Notes: a model not told the origin generated them from the letters alone. Shown: positions 50,821-64,000, counted from the stretch's first letter. The stretch is 64,000 nucleotides of DNA from Candidatus Aeolococcus gillhamiae (GCA_003244045.1 QHBU01000130.1:796-64795); one strand, 5' to 3'. Numbers and translations: made by a program.

Positions 50821-51882
50821 GTGATGACACCGCGCACCGCCAGGCTCTGCGCAGGCGTGCTGCTGGTGGCGGCCGCCGTCTTCGGTGTCGTCCGCCTCAC
50901 CGCAGCCCCCACCGCACCCGCTGCCTCGGCACGCGCTACCCCCACGGCCCACGCCACCGCGACCGCGAGCATCAACGCCGCGCCGCTGGATCCCCTGACT
51001 ATCGCGGCGATGCGTGCGCGAGCCTACGCGGCGAGCACGCTGACGACGGTGCGGTCCGATGGTGACCAGGGTGGCTACGTCAACAGCGTGGTCTCGTTCG
51101 TATCCGACGGGCTCATCGAGTACGCGCTGCAGAGCGTCCCCGACGGCAGTCGGCCGGCGGCCGGCTGGCCGGTGGTGATCCTCAGCCACGGCTACATCGA
51201 TCCCAGGACGTACCGCACCGACGACAGCTCCTACGCGCAGTTCATCGCCACGCTGGCGCGAGCGGGGTACCTGGTTCTGAAGCCGGATTTCCGCGGCCAC
51301 GGCCGGAGCCAAGGGGTGCCCGAGGGCGGATACCTCTCGCCGGTGTACACCTACGACCTGCTCAACCTGATCAGCACGGTCAAGGTCGACCCTCGAGTCG
51401 ACGCGTCGCGCATCGGCCTGTTCGGTCACAGCCTGGGTGGCTACCAGGCCCTGCGCGCGATGGTGATCTCGACCAGCGTGAAAGCGGCCGTCTTCATGTC
51501 CGCTGTCGTCGGCTCGCTGGACGACATCTTCTTCCACTGGTCGACGGTCACGGCCACACCGACCGCGGCACCGCCGCCCGTGCAGCAGCAGGTCGCCCAG
51601 TCGCTGATCGCCAACAGGGGGACGCCGAAGACGGACCCCAACTTCTACAACGAGGCCTCGGCGATCAACTACGTGAGCGCGTCCACAGCCGCGGTGCAGA
51701 TCGACGAGGACGTCAGCGACAGCCAGGTGCCGAAGCTGTTCTCAGACCACCTGTACGCCGCTCTGCAGGCCGCGGGCAAGACCGTCGAGTACGTGCCGTA
51801 CCTCGGCGACGACCATCAGTTCACCAGAAACCGCGCCGCCGTCCTGGGCAACGTGCTGGCCTTCTACCGCACCCATCTCTGA
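50821..51882 (+). CDS. secreted alpha/beta hydrolase (S9/dienelactone-hydrolase-like)
   Basis: GTG start with a signal/TM segment. The sequence has the nucleophile elbow GLFGHSLGG, D..V and DDHQF (an Asp/His pair). Confidence 0.75.
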   Translation: MMTPRTARLCAGVLLVAAAVFGVVRLTAAPTAPAASARATPTAHATATASINAAPLDPLTIAAMRARAYAASTLTTVRSDGDQGGYVNSVVSFVSDGLIEYALQSVPDGSRPAAGWPVVILSHGYIDPRTYRTDDSSYAQFIATLARAGYLVLKPDFRGHGRSQGVPEGGYLSPVYTYDLLNLISTVKVDPRVDASRIGLFGHSLGGYQALRAMVISTSVKAAVFMSAVVGSLDDIFFHWSTVTATPTAAPPPVQQQVAQSLIANRGTPKTDPNFYNEASAINYVSASTAAVQIDEDVSDSQVPKLFSDHLYAALQAAGKTVEYVPYLGDDHQFTRNRAAVLGNVLAFYRTHL

Positions 51883-52596
51883 AACAGACGAGAAGACGCG
51901 GACTGATTCAGCTGGTCGGCGGCGTTCCCGGCGCACCACCGGGCGCACCACCGGGGGGCCCCAGCCACCGCGGGGCGGCCCGCTAGTTGGGTGGGTGCCG
52001 TCGACCATGTCGGTGACCCGCTGCTGGGTCAGCGTCTTGTCCTGTGCGGCCTGCGCCGGGGTGATCTGTCCACTGGCAGCGCGCTGGTCGATCTCGGCAT
52101 TCTCGGACGCGACCAGTGCGCTGATGACGTCGGCCGCGGTCTTGCTGTGCGCGGTGGCGATTGCCGCTATCGTCTTGCCTGCGGTGAGCTCGGTCTGCAG
52201 CTGGTTGGTGCTGATGCCGATGGCTGTGGCGATCACCTGCTGGTCCTCAGCCTGCGCACCCGGTCCGCCGTGACCTCCCGAGCCGTGCTCCGGCTCGGTG
52301 CCGTTGACCATGTCGGTGACGCGGCGGGTCGTCTGTGCCTTCATCTGCGTGGCCTGGGCGCTGGTGATCGTGCCGGCCTTGGCCGCCGCGTCGATCTCGG
52401 CGTTCTCGTCGCCGACAAGCGTTGCGATGACCGTTGTCAGGTCGACGCTGCGCTCCTTGGCGATGGCCGCGATCGTCTTGCCGGCCGCCATGTCCGTCTG
52501 CAGCTGCGTGGCGTGGGCAGGCGGTGGTGGGGGCGGCGGTGGTGGAGGGGTCAGGTCCGCGGTGCCCGGGCCGCTGCTGGTGAGGTCGTCCGACAT
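51742..52596 (-). CDS. tandem-repeat helical protein with poly-proline tract; 3' end probably mis-framed
   Basis: ATG 52596 is preceded by GGAGG 6 nt upstream. The sequence MSDDLTSSGPGTADLTPPPPPPPPPP is followed by two ~75-aa repeats (LQT[DE]..AGKTIAAIA...ENAEID..A..G.IT.AQA.Q.K..T..RVTDMV.GT). After the G6/C4 run at 51953-51962 the literal frame loses GC3 bias and runs 140 nt into the convergent hydrolase gene. See findings. Confidence 0.6.
   Translation of the reverse strand: MSDDLTSSGPGTADLTPPPPPPPPPPAHATQLQTDMAAGKTIAAIAKERSVDLTTVIATLVGDENAEIDAAAKAGTITSAQATQMKAQTTRRVTDMVNGTEPEHGSGGHGGPGAQAEDQQVIATAIGISTNQLQTELTAGKTIAAIATAHSKTAADVISALVASENAEIDQRAASGQITPAQAAQDKTLTQQRVTDMVDGTHPTSGPPRGGWGPPVVRPVVRRERRRPAESVRVFSSVSEMGAVEGQHVAQDGGAVSGELMVVAEVRHVLDGLARGLQSGVQVV
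51931..51954. repeat. perfect tandem 12-mer (GCGCACCACCGG x2) abutting a G6C4 homopolymer run
   Basis: Read directly from the sequence: gcgcaccaccgg gcgcaccaccgg gggg cccc. Confidence 0.9.
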
Positions 52597-52657
52597 GCTC
52601 GGCCTCCGGGTCGTTGTATGGCTTGTTGCTGCCGTCGAACACTGTGATCGCGCAGCC

Positions 52658-53156
52658 TTACAACTCCGTGACCCGGGGCTGTGATTTCGCTGTGAGTGTC
52701 GCTGTTTCGCGGCGATCGGAGATGAGTCGCAATGCCAGCATCGGGCAGCTCGAGACCGCCCGGCGAGCCTGCGCGAGCAGGGGAAGCGGAACGATCCGGT
52801 CGGCCACGACGGGTATCCCCAGTCGTCGAGCGTGATGACCTCAGGAAAGAGTTCTGCGCACACCCCACGCCCGTCGCAGCGCGTGCGGTCGACGGCGAAG
52901 CGCGAGCTCCTGCGGCCACCGCTCGGCAGCGCGTCATCGTGCAGCCGCGTCGCTGTGCATGGGCTTCGAACTCATCGGCAAAGACGCGCAGCGCACTGAG
53001 CAGCATGGCCGCGGCGCCGTCGGGTGATGGCATGCCCCGCGACCACTGAGCTGGGTTGCCCAGCGCTGCGCGCGCGCCAGCTCATCCGACGCGGCCGTGC
53101 CAGCGGCGATCCGTTGCACCCCCTCGGCGACGGCGCGCAGACGCTGAGAGCTGCGG
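52658..53156 (-). pseudogene. decayed remnants: C-terminal fragment of a NuoF-like 4Fe-4S-binding-domain protein followed by a small ferredoxin, disrupted by multiple frameshifts
   Basis: Pieces on the minus strand lie in three frames. The pieces are ..RLRAVAEGVQRIAAGTAASDELARAQRWATQLSGRGACHHP / DGAAAMLLSALRVFADEFEAHAQRRGC / RFAVDRTRCDGRGVCAELFPEVITLDDWGYP / VVADRIVPLPLLAQARRAVSSCPMLALRL..* (TAA 52658-52660). The fragment begins directly at the stop of the upstream Ldt gene, so the N-terminal bulk of the NuoF-like gene is missing. Confidence 0.6.
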
Positions 53157-54545
53157 CTAAGCGCTGATCACCACCGGCGTGCCGATCGGCGTCCAGTCAT
53201 ACGCCCACGCCATCACCGGGGTGGGGGTGTGCACGCAGCCGTGGCTGGCGGCCTGCTGGTTGTATTCGCCGCCCGGGCCGTACGAGCTGGTCGATTCCCA
53301 CCAGGCGTCGTGAATGTAGTAGCCGCCGCTCGCGAACCCGAGGCCCCACTTGCACGGGGTGGGGTTGTAGTAGAAGGGCGAGCCCTTCGGCCACGGCGAG
53401 ACGAATGTGTAGTTGGTGGGCTTGCTCATCACCGAGAAATGGCCCGTCGGGGTGGGCAGCAAGGGCCGGCCGGTGGTCACCGGGGTGGCCTTGACAACGC
53501 AGCCGTCCTGGTAGAAGAGCATCTCCTGCAGCGAGAGCGAGATGGTGATCACCTTGCCGGCGCCGACGGAGTACCCGCATTGGTGGGCCGCGAGCTCGGT
53601 GGCGATCTGGTTCTGGAGCGAGCTCACCGACGCGGCGGCCGCGTTGAGCTGGTCGGCGGTGCGCGCCGCGCGGAATTGGACGCCGATCCCCGCTTGCTGT
53701 GCGCTGAGGGCTGCGGCGTTGGGCGTGTGCTCGGCAACCGCCTGGTCGGCGCTCCACAGCAGCGGCTGGATCTGGCCACCCACCTGGTTGTTGAGGTTGA
53801 CCAGCGACTGCAACGTGCTGAGAGCGGGGAGGAGCTGCTCACCGGTGTTGATGGCGGCGAGGTTGTCATTGGCGGCGATCTGGTTGCTCAGCTGGTCGGC
53901 GAGCGCGCCCACGTTGCCGGCGTCGAGGTTGGCGCCGGCCGCCACGGCGACCAGGTGCCGAGCGGTGGAGAGGACCTGCTGCGGCCCTCCCGCAGACTGC
54001 AGCGCCGCCGCCAGCTTGACGCGCTGGGCGGCGACGACGGCCGTCCGCTGCTGCGCGATGAAGCTCTGCCACGAACTCGCCAGGGCACTGATCGCGGCGG
54101 GACTCCTGGCTGCGCTGAGCTGCCTCGGCCACTGTCCCGCAGCCGCAGTGGCGTCGCCGGTCAGCCAGGAGGACTGCTGCGCGGCCAAGTCGTTCCACTG
54201 GGCGATCACCGCCTGGGCCCGGCTGCGCTGCGCGTCGAGCGCCGCGCTCCAGGCCGACTGGGTCTTGGTACGGAGCCGGTCGAGCAGGGCCGGGCCCTCG
54301 TTGCCGAACCACCCCGGCGACCACCACGCTGCGGTTGGCGCCTGGCTGCCCAGCTCGGCGCGGAGCGGCGCCAGGCTGGCGGCGGGCACGCCCGCGGCCT
54401 GGTCGCGGTCCCACTGGGCGCTGAGCTGGGCGGCGGCGTCAGTGAAACTCTTCTGGCGGTCGCCGGCGGCGTGCGCTGTGACTGCGCCGGCAGCGACGCC
54501 GCAGACGAGCAGCAGAAGAGGGGGGATCAGGTAGCGAGGGCGCAT
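53157..54545 (-). CDS. L,D-transpeptidase (YkuD) with long Ala/Gln-rich helical N-terminal domain
   Basis: ATG 54545 gives MRPRYLIPPLLLLVCGVAAGAVTAHA (signal). A ~330-aa A/Q/L-rich region follows, then a C-terminal YkuD domain with YYIHDAWW....SHGCVHTP. Confidence 0.8.
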   Translation of the reverse strand: MRPRYLIPPLLLLVCGVAAGAVTAHAAGDRQKSFTDAAAQLSAQWDRDQAAGVPAASLAPLRAELGSQAPTAAWWSPGWFGNEGPALLDRLRTKTQSAWSAALDAQRSRAQAVIAQWNDLAAQQSSWLTGDATAAAGQWPRQLSAARSPAAISALASSWQSFIAQQRTAVVAAQRVKLAAALQSAGGPQQVLSTARHLVAVAAGANLDAGNVGALADQLSNQIAANDNLAAINTGEQLLPALSTLQSLVNLNNQVGGQIQPLLWSADQAVAEHTPNAAALSAQQAGIGVQFRAARTADQLNAAAASVSSLQNQIATELAAHQCGYSVGAGKVITISLSLQEMLFYQDGCVVKATPVTTGRPLLPTPTGHFSVMSKPTNYTFVSPWPKGSPFYYNPTPCKWGLGFASGGYYIHDAWWESTSSYGPGGEYNQQAASHGCVHTPTPVMAWAYDWTPIGTPVVISA

Positions 54546-54660
54546 GGTGATGAGGATCGTGGGGCTGGGATGAGCCAACTGTAGCCGGTGAGCCCGGAAT
54601 CGAACTCGGCAATCGGGGAACCCGGGGTGGCCGGCGATGGTTACGGACCGCCTGGCGGGC

Positions 54661-55659
54661 TCAGCCCGGGGACTCCTCCCGGCGGTGCGTCGCGGCCAGC
54701 TCGGTGAGCATCCGCGGGTCGAGGTCGGCCCCGCTGATGGTGGCCACCTTGCAGGCGGTCACCGCGCGCACGGTGGCGGTGCGGCGGCCGCCTTCGATGA
54801 GCGCCCGCTCGCCGAGCACCGCTCCGGGTCCCAGCTGGCCGAGCGGCTTGCCACCGACCTCCACCGCCACCACTCCGTCGAGCACCAGGAAGACGTCGCT
54901 GCCCTCATCGCCCTGCTCGAGCAGCGTCCCGCCCTGGGCCACCTTGCTGATCCGCGGCTTGGTGCCGCCGCGCATGATGTGGCCAGATAGCTCACGCTCC
55001 AACGCCGTCTCGACCTCGCTCACCAGCGCCGGCGAGTCCTCGTCGCCCCACGGGGTGTGCGAACCGAAAGCGCGTTGGTACCAGTCCTTGAAGTCCACCA
55101 GGCCCGATTTCAGGACCAGCTTCCCGTCCCTGTCGTAGATCCAGTGGCGAGGGAACGGGCTGGCGCCGGTCACCTCGTGGACGGAGCTGCCGTCGGCGTA
55201 CAGGGTCAGCGACAGCGTGGTCCACACCAGCGGCGCCGATATCTGCACGAACGGTGGGTACTTGACGCGGCGCGGCGCGGGCACGCCGGTGCGACCACCG
55301 TAGGTCTGCACGAACTTCACCCAGCCCTCGGAGACGACCGGGGCGTGCTGCCGGTCGGGGAAGGCGACGGCAGCGAAGGTGGCGACCCGGCCGGCCAGAC
55401 GCATGGTGGTGGACCCGATGTGGCCGCCGCCGCTGTAGCCGTGCCCGGTGATCCGGCCGTCGTCGACCTCGATCCACGCGCTGAGGCGATTGGCGAAGCG
55501 GAACCGGTCGGCCTCGCGGAGTGCCTCGAGGTCGTCGACCTGGTCGGGCGGGGGCTCGTCGTAGTGGGCGACGCCCATGTCGAACGGCATCCGGGTCATG
55601 CCTCGAACGGCTTCCGAGGGGATCCACGAGATCGACGTGACGGACGACTCGATTTTCAT
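54661..55659 (-). CDS. cyclic-nucleotide-binding (CAP_ED) protein with uncharacterised ~220-aa N-terminal domain
   Basis: ATG 55659 is preceded by GGGAGG upstream. The C-terminus GGTLLEQGDEGSDVFLVLDGVVAVEV..LGPGAVLGERALIEGGRRTATVRA is a canonical cNMP-binding fold with the phosphate-binding cassette. The N-terminal domain (MKIESSVTSISWIPSEAV...) is not recognised. Confidence 0.8.
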   Translation of the reverse strand: MKIESSVTSISWIPSEAVRGMTRMPFDMGVAHYDEPPPDQVDDLEALREADRFRFANRLSAWIEVDDGRITGHGYSGGGHIGSTTMRLAGRVATFAAVAFPDRQHAPVVSEGWVKFVQTYGGRTGVPAPRRVKYPPFVQISAPLVWTTLSLTLYADGSSVHEVTGASPFPRHWIYDRDGKLVLKSGLVDFKDWYQRAFGSHTPWGDEDSPALVSEVETALERELSGHIMRGGTKPRISKVAQGGTLLEQGDEGSDVFLVLDGVVAVEVGGKPLGQLGPGAVLGERALIEGGRRTATVRAVTACKVATISGADLDPRMLTELAATHRREESPG

Positions 55660-55735
55660 TGTCAGGTACCTCCCGGCGGCCATGATCGTCCACGGGCAGC
55701 GACGGCGTCGAGGGTGCCGGCGCGACTGTTGGAGG

Positions 55736-55771
55736 GGTGCTCCCCACCGGCCAACCGTGGTGCTCACCCCA
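55736..55771. promoter_or_regulatory. direct repeat GGTGCTC(A)CCCCA x2 (23-nt register) in the divergent promoter between the cNMP-binding gene and the REC-HTH-cyclase gene
   Basis: ggtgctcccca lies at 55736-55746 and ggtgctcacccca at 55759-55771, 35 nt upstream of ATG 55806. They may be a binding site, but this is untested. Confidence 0.3.
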
Positions 55772-55805
55772 TTGCCGATTTTCCGGCCCCCCCTACAGTC
55801 GCCCC

Positions 55806-57128
55806 ATGGCCAGAGACGCATCCATACGGGTTGTGCTCGCCGACGACAACCTGATCGTCCGCGAGGGCGTGCGGGCGCTCCTCCTGATCGCCGGGGACAT
55901 CGAGGTCGTGGGCGTTGCCGGCGACTACGACGAGCTGGTGGCGGGCGCGGACGCGCTCACCCCGCAGGTGGTGGTCACCGACATCCGCATGCCGCCGAAC
56001 TTCACCGACGAGGGCATCAGGGCGGCCCGCCTGATCCGCAAGCAGTACCCGGGCACGGGCGTGGTCATCCTCTCCCAGTACGACGAGCCCGAATACGCCA
56101 TCTCGCTGCTCAGCGAGGGTGCCGCCGGCTACGCGTACCTGCTCAAGGACGGCGTCGCTGAGGGCGACCAGCTGGCCCGGGCGGTGCGTGAGGTCAGCGC
56201 GGGTGGCTCGATGCTCGACCCGCGCATCGTCAACGCGCTGACCAAGCCGGTGACCGACGGCGGCAGCCTCAGTGACAGCGACGAGCGGCTCCTCCAGATG
56301 GTCGCCGAGGGGCGGCCGATGAAGTCCATCGCGGTGGCCATCAACTCCACGGCCGAGGCCGTCTCCGACGCCGTTGAGCACCTCTTCCTGCAACTTGCAC
56401 AGCAGGCCAGCAGTGGGACGCAGAGCGCGTTGCAGCGGCTGCGGCTCCTGCACCGCGCCATCGTCGACCGCGAGGAGCAGGGCGAGAGCCTCAGCCGGAT
56501 GCTCCCCGGCGGGCTGGCCCAAAAGCTGCGCGAGCAGGGCGTCAAGCCGGGGGAAACGGAGCGCCTCACCGTCACCGTGCTGATGTCGGACATCCGCGCC
56601 TACTCGACAATCGCGGAGGTGGCCGACCCCAGCGTCCTTGCCGGCCAGCTGCACGAGCACCGCGCCGAGATGAACCACGCGCTCCTCGGTGAGAACGGCA
56701 CGGTCATGCAGTTCGTCGGCGACGCCGTGATGGCGGTGTTCGGCGCGCCGTTCCCGCAAGCGGACCAGTGCGAGCGAGCGGTGGCGGCAGCGGAGGCCAT
56801 GCACGCTCGGCAGGCCGAGCTCAACGCCCGCTGGGCTGCCGCCGGCCTGCCGCCGTTCCATCTCGGCATCGGCGTGTCCACCGGCGACGTCGCAGCCGCC
56901 CTGCTCGGGTCGGATGAGCGCCTCGAGTACTCGGTTGTCGGTGATGCGGTCAACCTCGCCCAACGGCTCCAGCAGTGGGCCGAGGGCGGTCAGACCGTGC
57001 TCAGCGATCCCACCTTTGCAGCGCTGTCGCCGCCGCCGCACGCCGAACGGCTGGAGCCCGCCCTTGTCAAGGGACGGCAGACGCCTGTCGGCGCGCACCG
57101 GCTGGGTACTGCCCTCGTCGCGACGTGA
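55806..57128 (+). CDS. response regulator fusion: REC + degenerate LuxR/GerE-type HTH + class III nucleotidyl cyclase domain
   Basis: ATG 55806 gives MARDASIRVVLADDNLIVREG.. The REC domain has VVVTDIRMP (Asp acceptor), VVILSQY and YLLKDG. The HTH region is LSDSDERLLQMVAEGRPMKSIAVAINSTAEAVSDAVEHLFLQL. The cyclase has VTVLMSDIRAYS, MQFVGDAVMAVFGAP, HLGIGVSTGDV and YSVVGDAVNLAQRLQ. Its TGA overlaps the first kinase GTG. Confidence 0.85.
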   Translation: MARDASIRVVLADDNLIVREGVRALLLIAGDIEVVGVAGDYDELVAGADALTPQVVVTDIRMPPNFTDEGIRAARLIRKQYPGTGVVILSQYDEPEYAISLLSEGAAGYAYLLKDGVAEGDQLARAVREVSAGGSMLDPRIVNALTKPVTDGGSLSDSDERLLQMVAEGRPMKSIAVAINSTAEAVSDAVEHLFLQLAQQASSGTQSALQRLRLLHRAIVDREEQGESLSRMLPGGLAQKLREQGVKPGETERLTVTVLMSDIRAYSTIAEVADPSVLAGQLHEHRAEMNHALLGENGTVMQFVGDAVMAVFGAPFPQADQCERAVAAAEAMHARQAELNARWAAAGLPPFHLGIGVSTGDVAAALLGSDERLEYSVVGDAVNLAQRLQQWAEGGQTVLSDPTFAALSPPPHAERLEPALVKGRQTPVGAHRLGTALVAT

Positions 57129-59266
57129 GCAGCAACGGTTCGCCGAGCCGGCGCGTTCTGCGCTTCGCTGCGGCGCTCAGCGTGCTGGCACCGTGCATCG
57201 CCCTTGCCCTTGCGGCCTCCCTGGGAGTGCTCATCTACGCGGACCGCAGCGTGCCCGAGAATGAGTGGATTCGCGGTGTCGGTGCCGCGGTTTTCGCCCT
57301 GCTGGTGGCGCCGATGGGCAGCCTTCTGCTGCGCCGCGTCCCGCGCAACCCACTCGGCTGGATCTTCAGCGCGGCCGCGGTCACCACCGGTCTCATCGAG
57401 CCACTGGCGTTCCTCGCCATCCACGGCACCTACGTCGAGCACGACCGCTCGTGGTGGACACTCCTCAGCGCCTGGCTGACCGAGCCTCTCGCGGTGGTGT
57501 CCGTCGGCCTTCTCGTCGGCGTGGTCCCGTTGCTCTTTCCCGACGGAGTGGTGGCCTCCGCCCGGTGGCGGCGCTACCGTAGATTCCTAACGGCCTTCGT
57601 ACCGCTGGCCGCGCTGGCTGTCGCGGTGCAGACGGGTGTCGGGCTCACCACAGTTCGCGTCAACAGCAGCGGCGGCCTTTCCTCGGACACGCAGAGCGCG
57701 TCGGTGGCGATCGCCTTCCTCGGCCTCCTGGCGTGCTCCGCCCTGTCAGCCGCCAACCTGGTCGGCCGCTACCGTCGCGCCGAAGGGATCCGCCGCCGCC
57801 AGCTCCGCAGCTTCGCCATCGCTGTGGTCGTGATCATCGCCTTCGGCTTCATCCCGCACCTCATCAGCAACATCGCCCTGGAGGACCCCACCGCGCTGGC
57901 CGTGGCCATCACCAACGCGGTGATGGTCGGGTCATTCTCACTCCTGCTCCTGGCCATGGGGATCGCCATCCTGAGGTACCGGCTGTTCGGTATTCAGGTG
58001 CTGGTCAGCCGCACGCTGGTCTACGGATCGCTGGCTGTTTTCATCACCGCCGTGTACGTCGGCATCGCCGTCGGCATCGGGGCGCTGGTCGGCGGCGGTG
58101 GCAAGCCCAACCTCGGGCTGTCGATCCTGGCCACCGCAATCGTCGCCATCGGGTTCCAGCCGGTGCGCGAGCGTGTCCAGAAGATTGCCAACCGGCTCGT
58201 GTACGGCAAACGGGCGACACCATACGAAGTGCTGTCGCAGTTCTCAGAGAGGGTGGCCGAGTCGTACTCCCTGGACGACGTGATGCCACGGATGGCGCGC
58301 GTCCTGGCCGAGGGGACGGGGGCGCAGCGCGCCGACGTCTGGCTGCGCAGCGGAAACATGTGGCACAACGCGGCTGTCTGGCCTGGCGATGCGACGGCGG
58401 CGAATCCGGTCGCTGCGGACGGATCGCTGCCCGCCATCAACGGAGCCAGCCGGCTGGTCGAGGTGCGCCACCAGGGTGATGTGCTGGGCGCTCTGGGCGT
58501 CACCAAACGCAGTGGCGAATCGCTGACGCCCGTGGAGGACAACCTGCTCTCGCATCTTGCCTCGCAGGCGGGATTGGTCCTGAAGAACGTCGGCCTCACC
58601 GGTGACCTGCAAGCGCGGCTTGTCGAGCTGCGCGCGTCGCGGCAGCGGCTGGTGACGGCACAGGACGAGGAGCGCCGCAAGCTGGAGCGCAACCTCCACG
58701 ACGGGGCACAGCAGCACCTTGTCGCCATCAAGGTGAAGCTCGGCCTTGCCGAGATGCTGATGCGCCGCGACCCGGAGACGGCCAAGCTCACCCTGGATCA
58801 ACTGAAGGGCGACGCCGACGAAGCGCTGGAAACCCTGCGCGATCTGGCGCGTGGCATCTACCCACCGCTCCTCGCCGAGAAGGGCTTGGGCGCTGCTCTC
58901 GCATCGCAGGCTCGGAAGGCGACCGTCCCGGTGACCGTCGAAGCCGACGGCATCGGCCGCTATTCGCAGGACGTCGAGGCCGCCGTGTACTTCTCAGCGC
59001 TGGAGGCGCTGCAGAACGTGCAGAAGTACGCGCAGGCGTCGGAGGCGACCGTGCGACTGCGTGAGGACGCTGGTGCGTTGCACTTCGAGGTCGCTGACGA
59101 CGGGAGAGGTTTCGATGTCGCCAGCACCACCAGGGGCTCGGGTCTCACCAACATGGCCGACCGCATCGACGCTCTTGGCGGCGAGCTAGGGATTGAGTCC
59201 GCGCCGGGCCATGGCACCAGGCTGCACGGCCGGCTGCAGGTGACCGCCGCGAGCGTACCCGCGTGA
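57125..59266 (+). CDS. sensor histidine kinase paralog 1 (multi-TM sensor + GAF + HisKA_3 + HATPase_c)
   Basis: GTG 57125 forms a GTGA overlap with the cyclase gene. The dimerisation/His region is DEERRKLERNLHDGAQQHLVAIKV. The ATPase region has ALQNVQKYA, DDGRGFD, GSGLTNMADR and GGELGIES.PGHGT. Confidence 0.9.
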   Translation: MSSNGSPSRRVLRFAAALSVLAPCIALALAASLGVLIYADRSVPENEWIRGVGAAVFALLVAPMGSLLLRRVPRNPLGWIFSAAAVTTGLIEPLAFLAIHGTYVEHDRSWWTLLSAWLTEPLAVVSVGLLVGVVPLLFPDGVVASARWRRYRRFLTAFVPLAALAVAVQTGVGLTTVRVNSSGGLSSDTQSASVAIAFLGLLACSALSAANLVGRYRRAEGIRRRQLRSFAIAVVVIIAFGFIPHLISNIALEDPTALAVAITNAVMVGSFSLLLLAMGIAILRYRLFGIQVLVSRTLVYGSLAVFITAVYVGIAVGIGALVGGGGKPNLGLSILATAIVAIGFQPVRERVQKIANRLVYGKRATPYEVLSQFSERVAESYSLDDVMPRMARVLAEGTGAQRADVWLRSGNMWHNAAVWPGDATAANPVAADGSLPAINGASRLVEVRHQGDVLGALGVTKRSGESLTPVEDNLLSHLASQAGLVLKNVGLTGDLQARLVELRASRQRLVTAQDEERRKLERNLHDGAQQHLVAIKVKLGLAEMLMRRDPETAKLTLDQLKGDADEALETLRDLARGIYPPLLAEKGLGAALASQARKATVPVTVEADGIGRYSQDVEAAVYFSALEALQNVQKYAQASEATVRLREDAGALHFEVADDGRGFDVASTTRGSGLTNMADRIDALGGELGIESAPGHGTRLHGRLQVTAASVPA

Positions 59267-61422
59267 CGGTCGCAGCGCAGCGGCGCGCGTGGACCACGCC
59301 TCTGGCCGTCGGCCTGGCCGCAATGGCAGTTGCGGCGGCAGCGACCACGGCCACGCTTGCCTTCCTCAACCGCGCGTCGTTCCCCAACCTGGATGCAGCC
59401 GACCCGACGTCGATCCTCATCCCGCTCGGAGTTGCAGTATTGGGCGCGCTGGTTGCCTCACGCCGTCCACACAACCCGACCGGCTGGCTCTTCTTGGTTC
59501 TCGCTGTGGTGGGGGGGCTGCAGGGGGTGGAGGATCAGTACGTCAGGTACGCGCTGGTGACTCACCCGGGTTCATTGCCCGGGGCAGCATGGGTGGCGTG
59601 GTTGAACAGCTGGTTCACCTTCCTCGTCTTCCCGTCCGGCGCCCTGGCCGCGGTCCTGCTGCTGCTCCCTGACGGACATCTCCCCTCGCGACGATGGCGG
59701 CCGGTCCTCGTTGCAGCGGCCGTCATGACCGCGGTGAACATCGTCTTCACTGCGCTCGCGCCCGGGCCGCTGACGCTCAGCTCGAGCGGGGCTAACTTCC
59801 CGACTCCGGACAACCCCGTTGGCCTAGCCGTTCTGAGCAGCGTCGACCAGACGTCTGGATCGGTTGTGGCCAATGGCGCCCTCTGGTTCGTCGCCCTGGC
59901 CGTCCTCCTCGTGGCGGCGGCCGCTCCGATGGTGCGGATGCGCAAATCGAAGGGCGACCAGCGACAGCAGTTGAAATGGATCGCCTACGCGGTGTTGGGC
60001 ACCGTTGTCGGAATCGTCGTCTTCACTGTCCTCGCCGGGCAGATCCTGCCATCCTGGACCTTCGACATCCCGCTGGTTCTCGGTTTCGGCGTGGCACTGC
60101 CGGCGGCGGCCGGTGTCGCCATCTTCAAACACCGGCTCTACGACATCGACATCGTCATCAGTCGCACACTCGTGTACGGCGCACTGGCTGTGTTCATCAC
60201 CGCCGTGTATGTCGGCATCGCAGTCGGCATTGGTGCGCTCATCGGCGGCGGCGGCAAGCCGAACCTGGCTCTGTCCATCCTCGCCACGGCGGTCGTGGCA
60301 GTTGGCTTCCAGCCGGTTCGCGAACGCGTGCAGAAGGTTGCCAACCGCCTCGTGTACGGAAAGCGCGCCACCCCATACGAGGTGTTGGCCCAGTTCTCCG
60401 AGCGCGTCGCCGGCTCGTACGCCGCCGCCGACGTACTGCCGCGGATGGCCCGTGTTCTTGCCGAGGGGACGGGCGCGCAGCGTGCGGATGTGTGGTTGTG
60501 CAGCGGCGACGCTTGGGCCGATGCCGCAGTCTGGCCCGGTGACGCCACGCCCTGCGCTCCATGGACTGCGCCCAACGGTGACCTGCCGTCGTCCAGTCCG
60601 GGTGACAGGGTTGTCCCTGTTTCACACCAGGGCACTGTGCTCGGAGCTCTTGGCGTCACCAAGCGCTTCGGTGAATCGCTGACCCCGGTCGAGGAGAACC
60701 TGTTGAGTCACCTCGCCGGCCAGGCAGGGCTGGTGCTCAAGAACGTCGGCCTCACCGGCGATCTTCAGGCGCGCCTGGTGGAGCTCCGCGCGTCGCGGCA
60801 GAGGCTGGTGAGCGCGCAGGACGAGGAGCGCCGCAAGCTCGAGCGCAACCTCCACGACGGAGCCCAGCAGCACCTCGTGGCCATCAAGGTGAAGCTCGGC
60901 CTGGCCGAGATGCTCGCGAGCAGAGACCCCGAGAAGGCGCGGGCCACCATCGAGCAGCTCAAGGGCGACGCCGATGAAGCCCTGGAAACCTTGCGCGACC
61001 TGGCGCGCGGCATCTATCCACCGCTCCTGGCCGAGAAGGGCTTGGGCGCAGCCCTCGCGTCGCAGGCTCGGAAGGCGACCGTCCCGGTGACGGTCGAAGC
61101 CGACGGCATCGGCCGCTATTCGCAGGACGTCGAAGCCGCCGTGTACTTCTCGGTGCTCGAAGCGCTGCAGAACGTGCAGAAGTACGCGCAGGCGTCCCAT
61201 GCCGCGGTCACTCTGGGTGAGCACGACGGTGCGCTGACGTTCGATGTCGTCGACGACGGCAGTGGCTTCGACGTTGGGTCCACCACCAAGGGTTCCGGCC
61301 TGACCAACATGGCCGACCGCATCGACGCTCTCGGCGGCGATCTGGAGATTGAGTCCACGCCGGGCAGTGGGACGCGCCTCCATGGCCTGCTCCGGGTGGC
61401 GTCAGTGGCAGCACTGGCGTGA
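59263..61422 (+). CDS. sensor histidine kinase paralog 2 (multi-TM sensor + GAF + HisKA_3 + HATPase_c)
   Basis: GTG 59263 overlaps the upstream TGA (GTGA). The C-terminal ~430 aa are near-identical to paralogs 1 and 3, while the N-terminal membrane domain has diverged. Confidence 0.9.
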   Translation: MTVAAQRRAWTTPLAVGLAAMAVAAAATTATLAFLNRASFPNLDAADPTSILIPLGVAVLGALVASRRPHNPTGWLFLVLAVVGGLQGVEDQYVRYALVTHPGSLPGAAWVAWLNSWFTFLVFPSGALAAVLLLLPDGHLPSRRWRPVLVAAAVMTAVNIVFTALAPGPLTLSSSGANFPTPDNPVGLAVLSSVDQTSGSVVANGALWFVALAVLLVAAAAPMVRMRKSKGDQRQQLKWIAYAVLGTVVGIVVFTVLAGQILPSWTFDIPLVLGFGVALPAAAGVAIFKHRLYDIDIVISRTLVYGALAVFITAVYVGIAVGIGALIGGGGKPNLALSILATAVVAVGFQPVRERVQKVANRLVYGKRATPYEVLAQFSERVAGSYAAADVLPRMARVLAEGTGAQRADVWLCSGDAWADAAVWPGDATPCAPWTAPNGDLPSSSPGDRVVPVSHQGTVLGALGVTKRFGESLTPVEENLLSHLAGQAGLVLKNVGLTGDLQARLVELRASRQRLVSAQDEERRKLERNLHDGAQQHLVAIKVKLGLAEMLASRDPEKARATIEQLKGDADEALETLRDLARGIYPPLLAEKGLGAALASQARKATVPVTVEADGIGRYSQDVEAAVYFSVLEALQNVQKYAQASHAAVTLGEHDGALTFDVVDDGSGFDVGSTTKGSGLTNMADRIDALGGDLEIESTPGSGTRLHGLLRVASVAALA

Positions 61423-63566
61423 CTCAACAAGAGCGACATCCTCGCTGGACGACGCCGCTCGCGCTGGCCTTGGCGGCGCTCGCCCTGGCGGCCGCGGCCG
61501 CAACTGTCGCGCTGGCCATCGCCAACCGTGCCACGCTGCCGAACCTCGACGCGGCGGACCCCATCTCCATCGTCGTGCCGATCGGTGTCTCCGTCGTCGG
61601 GGCGCTCATCGCCTCTCGGCACCCGCGCAACCCCACAGGCTGGCTGTTCCTCTTCGCCGCCGCCGTCGGCGGCTTGCAGGGGGTGGAGGACCAGTACGCC
61701 CGGTTTGCGCTGGTCACACACGGTGGCGGTCTGCCCTGGGGCGCATTCTCTCTATGGCTGAACAGCTGGTCGTTGTCCCTCATCTATCCGTGTGGCGCGG
61801 TGGCCATGTTCTTCCTCCTGCTGCCCGACGGTCACCTGCCCTCGAGGCGGTGGCGCGCAGTGGTCGCCTTGGCGGTTGTCGTGTCCACCGCGGCTGTCCT
61901 GCTCACCGCACTGGCGCCCGGCCCGCTCGTTCCGAGCACCAACGGTCTGAACTACCAGACGCCGGTCAATCCCGTGGGGTTGGCGGGTTTCAGCGGTGCT
62001 GTTGTGGGGGCCCTGAACAGTGCGCTGTACATCGCCGGGCTCGTCCTGCTGTTGGCGTCGGCGTCGGCGCCGCTGGTGCGTTCGCGGCGGTCGCATGGCG
62101 AGCTCCGCCAGCAACTGAAGTGGATCGCGTATGCGGTCATCATCACCGTGGTCGTCAATCTCACGCTGGCCATCTTCTTCAACCAGCTGCCAGGCTGGGT
62201 GTACGACCTTCCTATCGTGGTCGGCTTCGGCGTCGCCATGCCCGTGGCAGCTGCGATCGCGATCTTCAAGTACCGCCTCTACGATATCGACGTCGTCATC
62301 AGCCGCACGATCGTCTACGGCTCGCTGGCGGTGTTCATCACCGCGGTGTACGTTGGCATCGCGGTCGGCATCGGGGCGCTGGTCGGCAGCGGCGGCAAGC
62401 CCAACCTGGGCCTGTCCATCCTCGCCACCGCCATTGTGGCCGTTGGGTTCCAACCGGTGCGCGAGCGCGTGCAGCGGATTGCCAACCGCCTCGTGTACGG
62501 CAAGCGTGCGACGCCATACGAGGTGCTTGCCCAGTTCTCCGAGCGCGTCGCTGAGTCCTACGCAGCGGACGACGTCATGCCGCGGATGGCGCGGGTGCTC
62601 GCCGAGGGAACCGGCGCGCAGCGCGCCGATGTTTGGCTGCGCGGTGGAACACAGTGGCGCAACGCGGCCGTGTGGCCGTCGGACGCCTCACCGGAGCGTC
62701 CGCTCGCCGTCGAGAACGACATGCTGCCAGCGCTTGGCTCAGCGATGCGGGTGGTCGAGGTTCGCTACCAGGGAGACCTGCTCGGAGCGCTGGGTGTCAC
62801 CAAGCGCAGCGGCGAGTCGCTGACCCCGGTGGAGGAGAACCTCCTGTCCCACCTCGCGGGACAGGCCGGCCTGGTGCTCAAGAACGTCGGGCTGACCTCG
62901 GACTTGCAGGCGCGGCTCGAAGAGCTACGAGCCTCGCGTCAGAGGCTGGTCACTGCCCAGGACGAGGAGCGCCGCCGGTTGGAGCGCAACCTCCACGACG
63001 GTGCCCAGCAGCACCTGGTGGCGCTGAAGGTGAAGCTCGGCCTTGCCGAGTTGCTGATGAGCCGTGACCCAGCGAAGGCCAGAGCCACCATCGAGCAGCT
63101 CAAGGGCGACGCTGACGAGGCGCTCGAGACCCTGCGCGACCTGGCTCGCGGCATTTATCCGCCGCTTCTCGCCGAAAAGGGTTTGGGTGCGGCGCTCGGG
63201 TCGCAGGCGCGCAAGGCCACGATCCCGGTGACGATCGATGCTGAGGGCGTCGGCCGTTACTCACAGGACATCGAGGCCGCCGTGTACTTCTCCGTGCTCG
63301 AGGCGCTGCAGAACGTGCAGAAGTACGCGCAGGCCTCGAAGGCGACTGTCCTGCTTCGCGAAGCCGACGGCGTGCTGCGATTCGAGGTCGCCGACGACGG
63401 CCAGGGGTTCGACGTCCTCACCAGGGCGAAGGGATCAGGCCTCACCAACGTGGCTGACCGCGTCGACGCTCTTGGTGGTGCGATCGACGTGCACTCCGTG
63501 CTCGGACGGGGAACGACGCTCGCTGGAACCCTGTCCGTGCCGGTTCGTGTCGCGGTGCCCGCGTGA
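61419..63566 (+). CDS. sensor histidine kinase paralog 3 (multi-TM sensor + GAF + HisKA_3 + HATPase_c)
   Basis: GTG 61419 overlaps the upstream TGA. The domain order and motifs are the same (DEERRRLERNLHDGAQQHLVALKV; DDGQGFD; GSGLTNVADR). Confidence 0.9.
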   Translation: MTQQERHPRWTTPLALALAALALAAAAATVALAIANRATLPNLDAADPISIVVPIGVSVVGALIASRHPRNPTGWLFLFAAAVGGLQGVEDQYARFALVTHGGGLPWGAFSLWLNSWSLSLIYPCGAVAMFFLLLPDGHLPSRRWRAVVALAVVVSTAAVLLTALAPGPLVPSTNGLNYQTPVNPVGLAGFSGAVVGALNSALYIAGLVLLLASASAPLVRSRRSHGELRQQLKWIAYAVIITVVVNLTLAIFFNQLPGWVYDLPIVVGFGVAMPVAAAIAIFKYRLYDIDVVISRTIVYGSLAVFITAVYVGIAVGIGALVGSGGKPNLGLSILATAIVAVGFQPVRERVQRIANRLVYGKRATPYEVLAQFSERVAESYAADDVMPRMARVLAEGTGAQRADVWLRGGTQWRNAAVWPSDASPERPLAVENDMLPALGSAMRVVEVRYQGDLLGALGVTKRSGESLTPVEENLLSHLAGQAGLVLKNVGLTSDLQARLEELRASRQRLVTAQDEERRRLERNLHDGAQQHLVALKVKLGLAELLMSRDPAKARATIEQLKGDADEALETLRDLARGIYPPLLAEKGLGAALGSQARKATIPVTIDAEGVGRYSQDIEAAVYFSVLEALQNVQKYAQASKATVLLREADGVLRFEVADDGQGFDVLTRAKGSGLTNVADRVDALGGAIDVHSVLGRGTTLAGTLSVPVRVAVPA

Positions 63567-64000
63567 TGGGCGATATCCGCCGTCCCTCGACGACTCTCCT
63601 CGGGGTGGCGTGCGCCGCGCTCGCGGTGGCGATGGCGATGGCAGCGGCAGCATTGGTAGCCGCCAACGGACTCAATGCGACGACGGTGTCCGACGTGCCG
63701 CTCATCGTGGTATCGGCGAGCTACGCGCTGCTCGGAGCGCTGGTGGCCTCTCGGCAGCCAAGAAACATCACGGGATGGTTGTTCCTCTTCGTCGCGGTGT
63801 TCACAGGGATGGGCGGTGTCGCCAGTGAGTACGCGCTGTACGCCCGGGCGGCACGGCACGGCGCTCTTCCCGGTGCGGTGTGGGCCATCTGGTTCACATC
63901 GTGGTCGCAGTACGTGTTGTTCCCGACCGGTGCCATCGCCCTGCTCATGCTCTACCTGCCCGACGGGCGCGTTCCCTCGCCGAGGTGGCGGCCGCTAGCG
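63566..64000 (+). CDS. sensor histidine kinase paralog 4, N-terminal fragment (runs off window end; absent from ORF track)
   Basis: ATG 63566 overlaps the upstream TGA by 1 nt (TGATG). My translation is MGDIRRPSTTLLGVACAALAVAMAMAAAALVAANGLNATTVSDVPLIVVSASYALLGALVASRQPRNITGWLFLFVAVFTGMGGVASEYALYARAARHGALPGAVWAIWFTSWSQYVLFPTGAIALLMLYLPDGRVPSPRWRP. It is collinear with the N-termini of paralogs 2 and 3 (..SR.PRNPTGWLFL......LLLLPDGHLPSRRWR). Confidence 0.8.
   Translation, partial: MGDIRRPSTTLLGVACAALAVAMAMAAAALVAANGLNATTVSDVPLIVVSASYALLGALVASRQPRNITGWLFLFVAVFTGMGGVASEYALYARAARHGALPGAVWAIWFTSWSQYVLFPTGAIALLMLYLPDGRVPSPRWRPLA

Follow-up and report, generated by a model that had tools for sequence, protein, structure and literature searches.

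Gene organization of the locus

We describe here a signalling locus at positions 54,661 to 64,000 of a stretch of 64,000 nucleotides (the window, ~70% G+C) from Candidatus Aeolococcus gillhamiae (GCA_003244045.1 QHBU01000130.1:796-64795), which is probably one copy of a branched two-component module with a cyclic nucleotide (cNMP) arm. Its central gene encodes a response regulator fused to a class III nucleotide cyclase (the regulator-cyclase). It is preceded by a divergent gene for a cNMP-binding protein and followed by genes for sensor histidine kinases. The source contig, called L001, continues past the 3′ end of the window, and positions preceded by L001 are those of that contig. An identical copy of the regulator-cyclase gene was found on two contigs of metagenome-assembled genomes (MAGs; GCA_036840865.1 DAITXG010000005.1 and GCA_016464765.1 JAEKNS010000014.1), and close homologues carry the label Candidatus Dormibacterota. 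Source annotations are generic, such as ‘class 3 adenylate cyclase/response regulator’ and ‘cyclic nucleotide-binding domain-containing protein’. The features of the locus are the following.

54661..55659, minus strand: cNMP-binding protein, 332 amino acids (open reading frame; Pfam cNMP_binding), with an N-terminal domain without Pfam match and a C-terminal cyclic-nucleotide-binding (CNB) domain
55660..55805: divergent intergenic (promoter) region, 146 bp
55806..57128, plus strand: regulator-cyclase, 440 amino acids; receiver (REC), degenerate GerE-like helix-turn-helix (HTH), helical linker, class III cyclase
57125..59266, plus strand: sensor histidine kinase 1, 713 amino acids; start overlaps the cyclase stop (GTGA); HisKA_3 and HATPase_c
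59263..61422, plus strand: sensor histidine kinase 2, 719 amino acids; GTGA overlap; HisKA_3 and HATPase_c
61419..63566, plus strand: sensor histidine kinase 3, 715 amino acids; GTGA overlap; HisKA_3 and HATPase_c
63566..64000, plus strand: sensor histidine kinase 4, truncated by the window; TGATG overlap at 63564; full length of 737 amino acids at L001 17761-19974
L001 19875-20258, minus strand: stand-alone REC, 127 amino acids (Response_reg, E 1.3e-23); beyond the window
L001 20336-21049, plus strand: canonical REC+GerE (NarL-type) regulator (GerE, E 1.4e-11, 44.2 bits); beyond the window

All six open reading frames listed in a preliminary description of this DNA were present, together with the stop/start junctions (GTGA at 57125, 59263 and 61419, TGATG at 63564) and the divergent gap of 146 bp. 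The start codons of the cNMP-binding protein and the regulator-cyclase are backed by conserved N-termini of their homologues. Profile searches recovered most of the domains proposed there (Response_reg, Guanylate_cyc, cNMP_binding and HisKA_3/HATPase_c), while the HTH of the regulator-cyclase (12.1 versus 23.5 bits) and the GAF domains of the kinases (13.9–20.7 bits) fell below the gathering scores. The statement that the receiver fused to the cyclase is the only one in the locus proved wrong, because the window edge had cut off the stand-alone REC and the canonical regulator present on the source contig. Both lie within ~1.1 kb of kinase 4, and the 3′ ends of the stand-alone REC gene and the kinase 4 gene overlap by 100 bp (L001 19875-19974).

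The regulator-cyclase

Three regions can be delimited in the regulator-cyclase.

55830..56132, plus strand: receiver domain, residues 9-109 (PF00072, E 3.2e-14); D13, D14, D59, S90, K114
56256..56450, plus strand: degenerate GerE/LuxR-type HTH-like region, residues 151-215 (GerE, 12.1 bits against a cut-off of 23.5, E 0.15)
56568..57080, plus strand: class III cyclase catalytic domain (Guanylate_cyc), residues 255-425 (PF00211, E 3e-16, 60 bits against a cut-off of 21.9)

We aligned the cyclase domain residue by residue to the PDB structures of Cya2 (2w01, the best solved-structure match, E 1.9e-29), CyaB (3r5g) and CyaC (1wc0). From this alignment D262 and D306 correspond to the metal-binding residues, N383 and R387 to those of the transition state and Q302 and S376 to the substrate-specifying pair. 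Among 75 orthologues from two phyla, D262, D306, N383, R387 and Q302 were invariant, and position 376 was S in 33 and T in 42. The receiver showed all the features of the NarL/FixJ type, namely the acidic pocket, the phospho-acceptor Asp, the Thr/Ser and the Lys: D59, S90 and K114 were invariant in the same orthologues and D13 and D14 nearly so, missing at alignment gaps only. Because catalytic and receiver residues are thus kept, the regulator-cyclase looks catalytically competent and phosphorylatable.

The substrate-specifying pair is not a canonical one. The counterpart of Q302 is Glu in the guanylyl cyclase Cya2 and Lys in the engineered adenylyl-cyclase variant 6fht, in CyaB and in CyaC; that of S376 is Thr in CyaB and CyaC and Gly in Cya2. 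The invariant Q302 with S or T at 376 matches none of the canonical combinations, which are Lys/Asp or Lys/Thr for ATP and Glu/Cys or Glu/Gly for GTP.

We then compared the regulator-cyclase with the canonical regulator encoded downstream. Their N-terminal 215 amino acids (REC and HTH region) are 43% identical, and in the alignment the HTH-like region falls on the GerE HTH of its neighbour. This identity, which includes the HTH segment, argues that the regulator-cyclase is a paralogue of its NarL-type neighbour with a cyclase appended. NCBIfam NarL-type models likewise cover residues ~1-198, with scores below their cut-offs. Identity is unevenly distributed between the two proteins: 64% in helix alpha1 and the loops expected to contact the kinase, 45% in the rest of the REC and 28% in the HTH. 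The HTH-like segment is also the least conserved part of the regulator-cyclase among the 75 orthologues, and the equivalent of its ‘recognition helix’ is acidic (AEAVSDAVEHLF, versus DRAVEKHINAIF in the canonical regulator). We suppose that this segment no longer binds DNA and would serve as a structural or regulatory spacer. Since 2 of 120 orthologues from Acidimicrobiia (P0440 and P0449) still carry a precomputed PF00196 (GerE) match, the family as a whole appears to have an HTH at the limit of detection, and not to have lost it uniformly. The segment SLSRMLPGGLAQKLRE just before the catalytic core may, by position only, be a cyclase transducer element such as that described for class III cyclases (PMC5995499).

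Between Dormibacterota and Acidimicrobiia/Nitriliruptorales (loci L003-L082 compared with the window), the cyclase domain and linker are ~67-74% identical and the whole protein ~63-71%, which is unusually high across phyla. The module has either been under very strong constraint or been transferred laterally.

Sensor kinases with near-identical phosphotransfer helices

HisKA_3 and HATPase_c scored above threshold in all four kinases (E 6.5e-17 and 4.9e-9, respectively, for kinase 4 as encoded on the source contig), as in sensor kinases of the NarX/LiaS/UhpB class. Alignment of the four kinases shows the H-box LERNLHDG as well as the N and G boxes. No known sensor domain was recognized by the Pfam search in their N-terminal region of ~330 amino acids with multiple transmembrane segments. 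A C-terminal tail of ~25 amino acids (L001 19875-19974) is found in kinase 4 and missing from kinases 1-3.

The four kinases are mosaic. The N-terminal multi-pass membrane region (~300 alignment columns) is 25-60% identical, with the sensor of kinase 1 the most distant (25-29% identical to kinases 2-4), while the membrane-proximal, GAF-like, dimerization and histidine phosphotransfer (DHp) and catalytic parts are 65-92% identical. The surroundings of the phospho-accepting His are practically the same in the four proteins (H-box ERNLHDGAQQHLVA(I/L)KVKLGLAE), and so is the second DHp helix throughout (DADEALETLRDLARGIYPPLL). Such near-identical DHp domains behind divergent sensors are the pattern expected if different inputs feed the same receiver or receivers.

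We examined the origin of this mosaic in 40 kinases from 16 multi-kinase loci (including L007, L012, L022 and L025). The sensor half had its nearest relative in another genome for 34 of them; the transmitter half had it in the same genome for 19, including all four kinases described here. Very recent gene conversion among the paralogues does not explain this within-genome clustering, because the transmitter halves are 76-82% identical at the DNA level and share no long identical tracts. The mosaic rather suggests an older gene conversion of the transmitters or swapping of sensor modules.

The cNMP-binding protein

Two domains make up the protein encoded upstream.

54955..55659, minus strand: N-terminal beta-rich domain, residues 1-235 (no Pfam family; AlphaFold (AF2) model)
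54721..54945, minus strand: cyclic-nucleotide-binding domain, residues 239-313 (PF00027, E 2.8e-15, 56.5 bits against a cut-off of 27.5); phosphate-binding cassette GERALIEGGRRTATVRA

As the preliminary description had it, cNMP_binding is the sole Pfam domain of this protein. The protein is conserved at full length in >120 clusters at 70-89% identity, and its start is backed by the conserved N-terminus M(R/K)IESSVTSISWIPSEA. Residues G283, E284, R293, T294 and A295 were invariant in 25 homologues, giving a complete cassette (GERA...RRTAT). An Arg-Thr cassette is found in both cAMP- and cGMP-responsive domains, so the ligand is not fixed by it. A fold search with the full-length model returned CNB domains only (HCN, PKA, PKG, CRP and MloK1, and also the CNB domain of a PycTIR). 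The protein does not have the CRP/FNR layout of an N-terminal CNB domain and a C-terminal HTH: its CNB domain is C-terminal, it has no HTH, and the CRP model matched the CNB part only (23.7 bits against 266).

Conservation is high in the first 235 residues, which contain the motifs SWIPSEA, DRFRFAN, QTxGGRTGxPxPR and GASxFPRHWxYD. This part gave no Pfam match even at E=10 and none in NCBIfam. An exhaustive HMMER search with this domain retrieved 1346 clusters (50%-identity representatives, E<=1e-3), mostly of ~330 amino acids, and the longer members that were checked with Pfam carry a CNB domain. Rare fusions (P0249, P0254 and P0336), which may hint at the function of the domain, combine it with a CNB and an Mpo1-like dioxygenase domain, with two CNB domains or with TrkA_N. 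The AF2 model of the domain by itself is beta-rich (pLDDT 78.8, pTM 0.75). Its only significant fold match in the PDB was 3c5p (BAS0735 of Bacillus anthracis, function unassigned; TM 0.45/0.53), and a viral fold library gave no match.

Conservation of the neighbourhood

To collect relatives, we scanned GTDB, each species represented by a single genome, for two peptide motifs taken from the linker and the cyclase, and obtained at least 554 confirmed matches. The neighbourhood counts refer to the best 80 of these loci, whose six-frame open reading frames were compared with the proteins of the window. By label, ~26 of the 80 are Dormibacterota, ~48 Actinomycetota (mostly Acidimicrobiales, also Nitriliruptorales) and 6 others.

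The divergent arrangement of the cyclase and cNMP-binding genes is conserved in relatives from two phyla, a point that the preliminary description had proposed to check. Of the 76 loci with enough upstream DNA, 62 have a divergent cNMP gene no more than 700 bp away from the cyclase gene, and 8 more have it nearby. In 57 of 60 loci the two genes of the divergent pair are 136-174 bp apart. The cNMP-binding proteins of Dormibacterota and Acidimicrobiia are only 51-66% identical, yet adjacency, divergence and spacing are kept.

On the other side, the cyclase gene stands directly 5′ of one or more kinase genes on the same strand in 47 of 53 loci with at least 6 kb of downstream DNA. The downstream region of these 53 loci contains kinase(s) in 47, a NarL-type regulator in 47, a single receiver in 48 and all three in 45. 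The preliminary description had conceded that better partners for the kinases might be encoded immediately downstream of the window, and this regulator and receiver do follow the kinases in the source contig and its relatives. Thus the conserved unit consists of five gene families, not three. The orientation of the last two varies: the genes for the single REC and the regulator diverge from each other in Dormibacterota, and in Acidimicrobiales both lie on the strand opposite to the kinase. The number of kinases per related locus ranges from 1 to 5; the array of four is a lineage-specific expansion.

A candidate operator in two intergenic regions

The 146-bp region between the cNMP and cyclase genes carries blocks conserved among Dormibacterota loci (GTCGAGGGTGC, CGTGGTGGCAGCCCCAT and CTACAGT) and the following element.

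55711..55732, plus strand: 22-nt element AGGGTGCCGGCGCGACTGTTGG, in the cNMP/cyclase intergenic region

A second copy, AGGGTGCCAGCCCCACTGTTGG, identical at 19 of 22 positions, lies at L001 20297-20318 between the REC and regulator genes. We estimate the chance expectation of such a copy at ~1e-3, and no further one was found elsewhere in the window or in L001. The 10-mer TCGAGGGTGC alone was not significantly enriched in the window (19 observed versus 10.7 expected), and only the longer element is treated as meaningful. A related CCAC-N6-9-GGTG inverted repeat is kept in both intergenic regions of other Dormibacterota loci. The 22-nt element is thus a candidate operator, and its presence in both regions suggests that the two divergent promoters are co-regulated, plausibly by the canonical regulator.

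Proposed mechanism

Our favoured interpretation, which we consider probable, is that the locus is a branched two-component system with a transcriptional and a cNMP arm, one copy of a conserved five-component module. It draws support from the intact domains and residues, the 43% identity of the two regulators over 215 amino acids, the gene overlaps, the shared DHp surface, the synteny, the CNB cassette, the 22-nt element and the precedent of CyaC discussed below.

From the observed gene content, domain integrity, residue conservation and synteny, we infer the following steps of phosphotransfer, activation and binding. The kinases (four here, with different sensors and nearly the same phosphotransfer surface) would pass phosphate to the canonical regulator and also, at Asp59, to the regulator-cyclase. 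Phosphorylation would release or dimerize the latter, as in NarL-type regulators, so that the dimeric active site of the cyclase is assembled. The active enzyme would then increase the amount of a cyclic nucleotide; whether this is cAMP, cGMP or both does not follow from the Gln-Ser/Thr pair. Binding of this nucleotide to the C-terminal CNB domain of the 332-amino-acid protein would in turn switch its conserved N-terminal domain. The stand-alone receiver is probably a phosphate sink or connector. Finally, the cis-element common to the two divergent promoters would ensure co-regulation, probably through autoregulation by the canonical regulator.

Several observations weigh against this branched reading or restrict it. 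In 6 of the 76 loci no cNMP gene was present within the flank, and a few (L022 and L025) have the kinases on the other side. A comparison of same-genome with other-genome pairs, made to detect co-evolution of the two NarL-type receivers, showed a tiny difference (0.639 versus 0.626) that extended to non-contact positions and so speaks neither for nor against the reading. With a Gln-Ser/Thr pair, the nucleotide product cannot be predicted from sequence, and an N-terminal domain without assigned function leaves the output of the cNMP arm unspecified. Also, the relatives from protein searches (best 120 each) and 79 of the 80 fetched loci are labelled as MAGs, with no cultured strain named. A protein search for a cultured host, seeded with a Microthrixaceae orthologue, similarly named none among the matches listed, the few organism-named matches being almost all MAGs.

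A bolder form of the branched reading, which we put forward tentatively and regard as rather unlikely, combines two propositions. The Gln-Ser/Thr pair would be the hallmark of a clade of cyclases that make something other than cAMP alone (cGMP, both cAMP and cGMP, or another cNMP), and the 235-residue domain with its CNB domain would represent a novel type of effector under cNMP control. With both, a two-component system that is widespread in Dormibacterota and Acidimicrobiia would have a second-messenger arm not described before.

Alternative explanations

The kinases might have the canonical NarL-type regulator as their true partner, the cyclase being not phospho-activated but a phosphate competitor, otherwise regulated, constitutive or inactive. 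HisKA_3 kinases normally pair with REC+GerE regulators, one of which is present, and the specificity position usually occupied by Lys or Glu is a Gln. Nevertheless we find this explanation unlikely, because receiver chemistry and cyclase catalytic residues are both invariant in the 75 orthologues of the two phyla, which argues for a working, phosphorylatable enzyme. The tight linkage of cyclase and kinase genes points in the same direction.

Another possibility is that the four kinases converge on one receiver, that of the cyclase, with cNMP as the sole output. This is what the preliminary description had proposed, and it is consistent with the position of the cyclase gene as the receiver gene inside the kinase operon, with overlapping stop and start, and directly ahead of the kinase(s) in 47 of the 53 relatives. 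Its premise of a sole receiver was, however, an artefact of the window edge. The canonical regulator and the stand-alone REC within ~1.1 kb of kinase 4 contradict it, since such extra receivers are conserved beside the kinases (45 of 53 loci), and the kinase-facing surface of the cyclase receiver is found in the canonical regulator as well. We thus judge a single common receiver improbable.

Equally improbable, in our opinion, is that the cNMP-binding protein is a mere neighbour at a divergent promoter, reading a cyclic nucleotide made elsewhere or none. Such a neighbour could be missing, as in the 6 loci mentioned above, or displaced, as in 8 others, and its N-terminal family could also occur in other fusions (Mpo1-like, second CNB, TrkA_N), as it does. 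Against this stands the adjacency, with divergence and a spacing of ~140-170 bp, conserved from Dormibacterota to Acidimicrobiia despite the divergence of the proteins, and the invariance of the cNMP-contact residues.

A signal-gated, Pycsar-like anti-phage system, in which cNMP would be made on infection and the CNB protein would be a toxic effector, had been raised as a speculative possibility and is extremely improbable. In its favour are PADLOC matches, to PycC with 65.8 bits and to PycTIR, in its CNB part, with ~44 bits, and the CNB domain of a PycTIR among the fold matches. It was rejected because the PADLOC matches are confined to generic cyclase and CNB domains (residues 234-314 of the CNB protein), no TIR or transmembrane effector domain was matched in the N-terminal domain, and the genes are divergent rather than a two-gene operon. 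Moreover, the cluster lies in conserved housekeeping synteny and occurs in at least 554 species-representative genomes of two phyla, unlike a sporadic or defence-island system.

Surrounding genes

On the source contig the locus is surrounded by genes in conserved housekeeping synteny (hisG/hisZ, an aminotransferase, ApbE and YkuD). The YkuD L,D-transpeptidase (window 53157-54578, minus strand) was recognized by its C-terminal domain (E 3.8e-22) and has a long N-terminal region rich in Ala and Gln. It is encoded directly downstream of the cNMP-protein gene, a placement detected only in the closest relatives, L003-L005. A further open reading frame (51742-52863, minus strand) contains two internal repeats of ~70 amino acids (…AGKTIAAIA…ENAEID…GxITxAQAxQ…RVTDMVxGT…) and a proline run. 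This gene is called on the source contig as 284 amino acids, without Pfam family.

Comparison with known systems

Like the regulator-cyclase, CyaC-type class IIIb cyclases of Spirulina and Anabaena carry a receiver N-terminal to a class III cyclase. The Ser/Thr at the second specificity position is also as in class IIIb, CyaC and CyaB both having Thr. CyaC, however, contains its own kinase and GAF in one polypeptide and a Lys at the first specificity position, whereas in the module described here the kinases have genes of their own, REC and cyclase are separated by a degenerate NarL-type HTH and the first specificity position is an invariant Gln. Phosphorylation of the receiver activates CyaC of Spirulina and Anabaena (PMC3009899). 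The regulator-cyclase may be activated in a similar, phosphorylation-dependent manner, as we infer from the architecture only. The guanylyl cyclase Cya2 of Synechocystis (2w01) has the same catalytic residues as the regulator-cyclase but combines a Glu/Gly specificity pair with a CHASE2 membrane sensor, in place of Gln/Ser and a receiver input. A single change, E488K, turns Cya2 into an adenylyl cyclase, the first specificity position switching between GTP and ATP (PMC5995499).

The Rv0386 family of Mycobacterium tuberculosis (cyclase, ATPase and LuxR-type HTH) offers another likeness: a class III cyclase with a LuxR/GerE-type HTH, in a Gram-positive lineage and with non-canonical substrate selection. 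Its specificity pair is Gln-Asn, as Castro et al. reportedly found in 2005, and to our knowledge it is the only precedent of the Gln type. Rv0386 differs in its reversed order, the cyclase being N-terminal, in lacking a receiver, in its intact HTH and in its second specificity residue, Asn instead of Ser/Thr. An alternative substrate-binding mechanism of Rv0386 is cited in PMC3466318.

In REC-GGDEF diguanylate cyclases, phosphorylation of the receiver drives dimerization of the cyclase, with the active site at the dimer interface (PMC8041772). Enzymes of this PleD/WspR type would follow the same logic as the one proposed here, but with another catalytic fold and with cyclic di-GMP as product.

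Branched or many-to-one networks are found in the same class of kinases and regulators, with NarX/NarQ and NarL/NarP, and with the sporulation kinases KinA-E acting on Spo0F. There, kinases that differ in their sensors have a phosphotransfer specificity in common and act on more than one receiver protein, as we propose for the present locus. In contrast to these networks, the second arm here would be a nucleotide cyclase, not a transcription factor, and the kinases are tandem paralogues in one operon.

For the cNMP arm, a cluster of cyclase and receptor genes is known from Rhodospirillum centenum, where the cGMP cyclase subunit genes gcyB and gcyC are grouped with cgrA, whose product reads the nucleotide (PMC4681086). 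That receptor is a CRP-type transcription factor (CNB and HTH), whereas here the CNB domain is C-terminal to a domain of 235 amino acids and no HTH is present. Pycsar systems (PycC with a CNB-TIR/transmembrane effector) likewise place a class III-like cyclase beside a CNB-domain protein; the module here differs by the lack of an effector domain, by a conserved, non-sporadic distribution and by its two-component input.

The preliminary description knew of no account of such an architecture as a unit. Our search of the literature for the module architecture or for Dormibacterota cyclases also found nothing specific, but the module is less unusual than had been claimed, the single receiver for four kinases not being real. 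What is new are variants of known parts: a fusion of a NarL paralogue with a degenerate HTH to a cyclase, an invariant Gln-Ser/Thr specificity pair, a variable tandem array of kinases with a fixed DHp and a linked CNB protein with an unannotated domain.

Significance

Dormibacterota and Acidimicrobiia are abundant, mostly uncultured lineages of soil, peat and permafrost, whose signalling is essentially unstudied. Found in at least 554 species-representative genomes, with a cyclase and linker ~70% identical across phyla, the module is among the more strongly conserved regulatory circuits there. Its division of one phosphorelay between transcriptional and second-messenger outputs makes it a clean study case, and its natural series of 1-5 kinases lends itself to asking how sensors are diversified on top of a phosphotransfer specificity that stays fixed. 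It also points to two testable biochemical questions: the specificity of a class III cyclase with a Gln-Ser/Thr pair, and the function of an unannotated domain family of ~1300 clusters.

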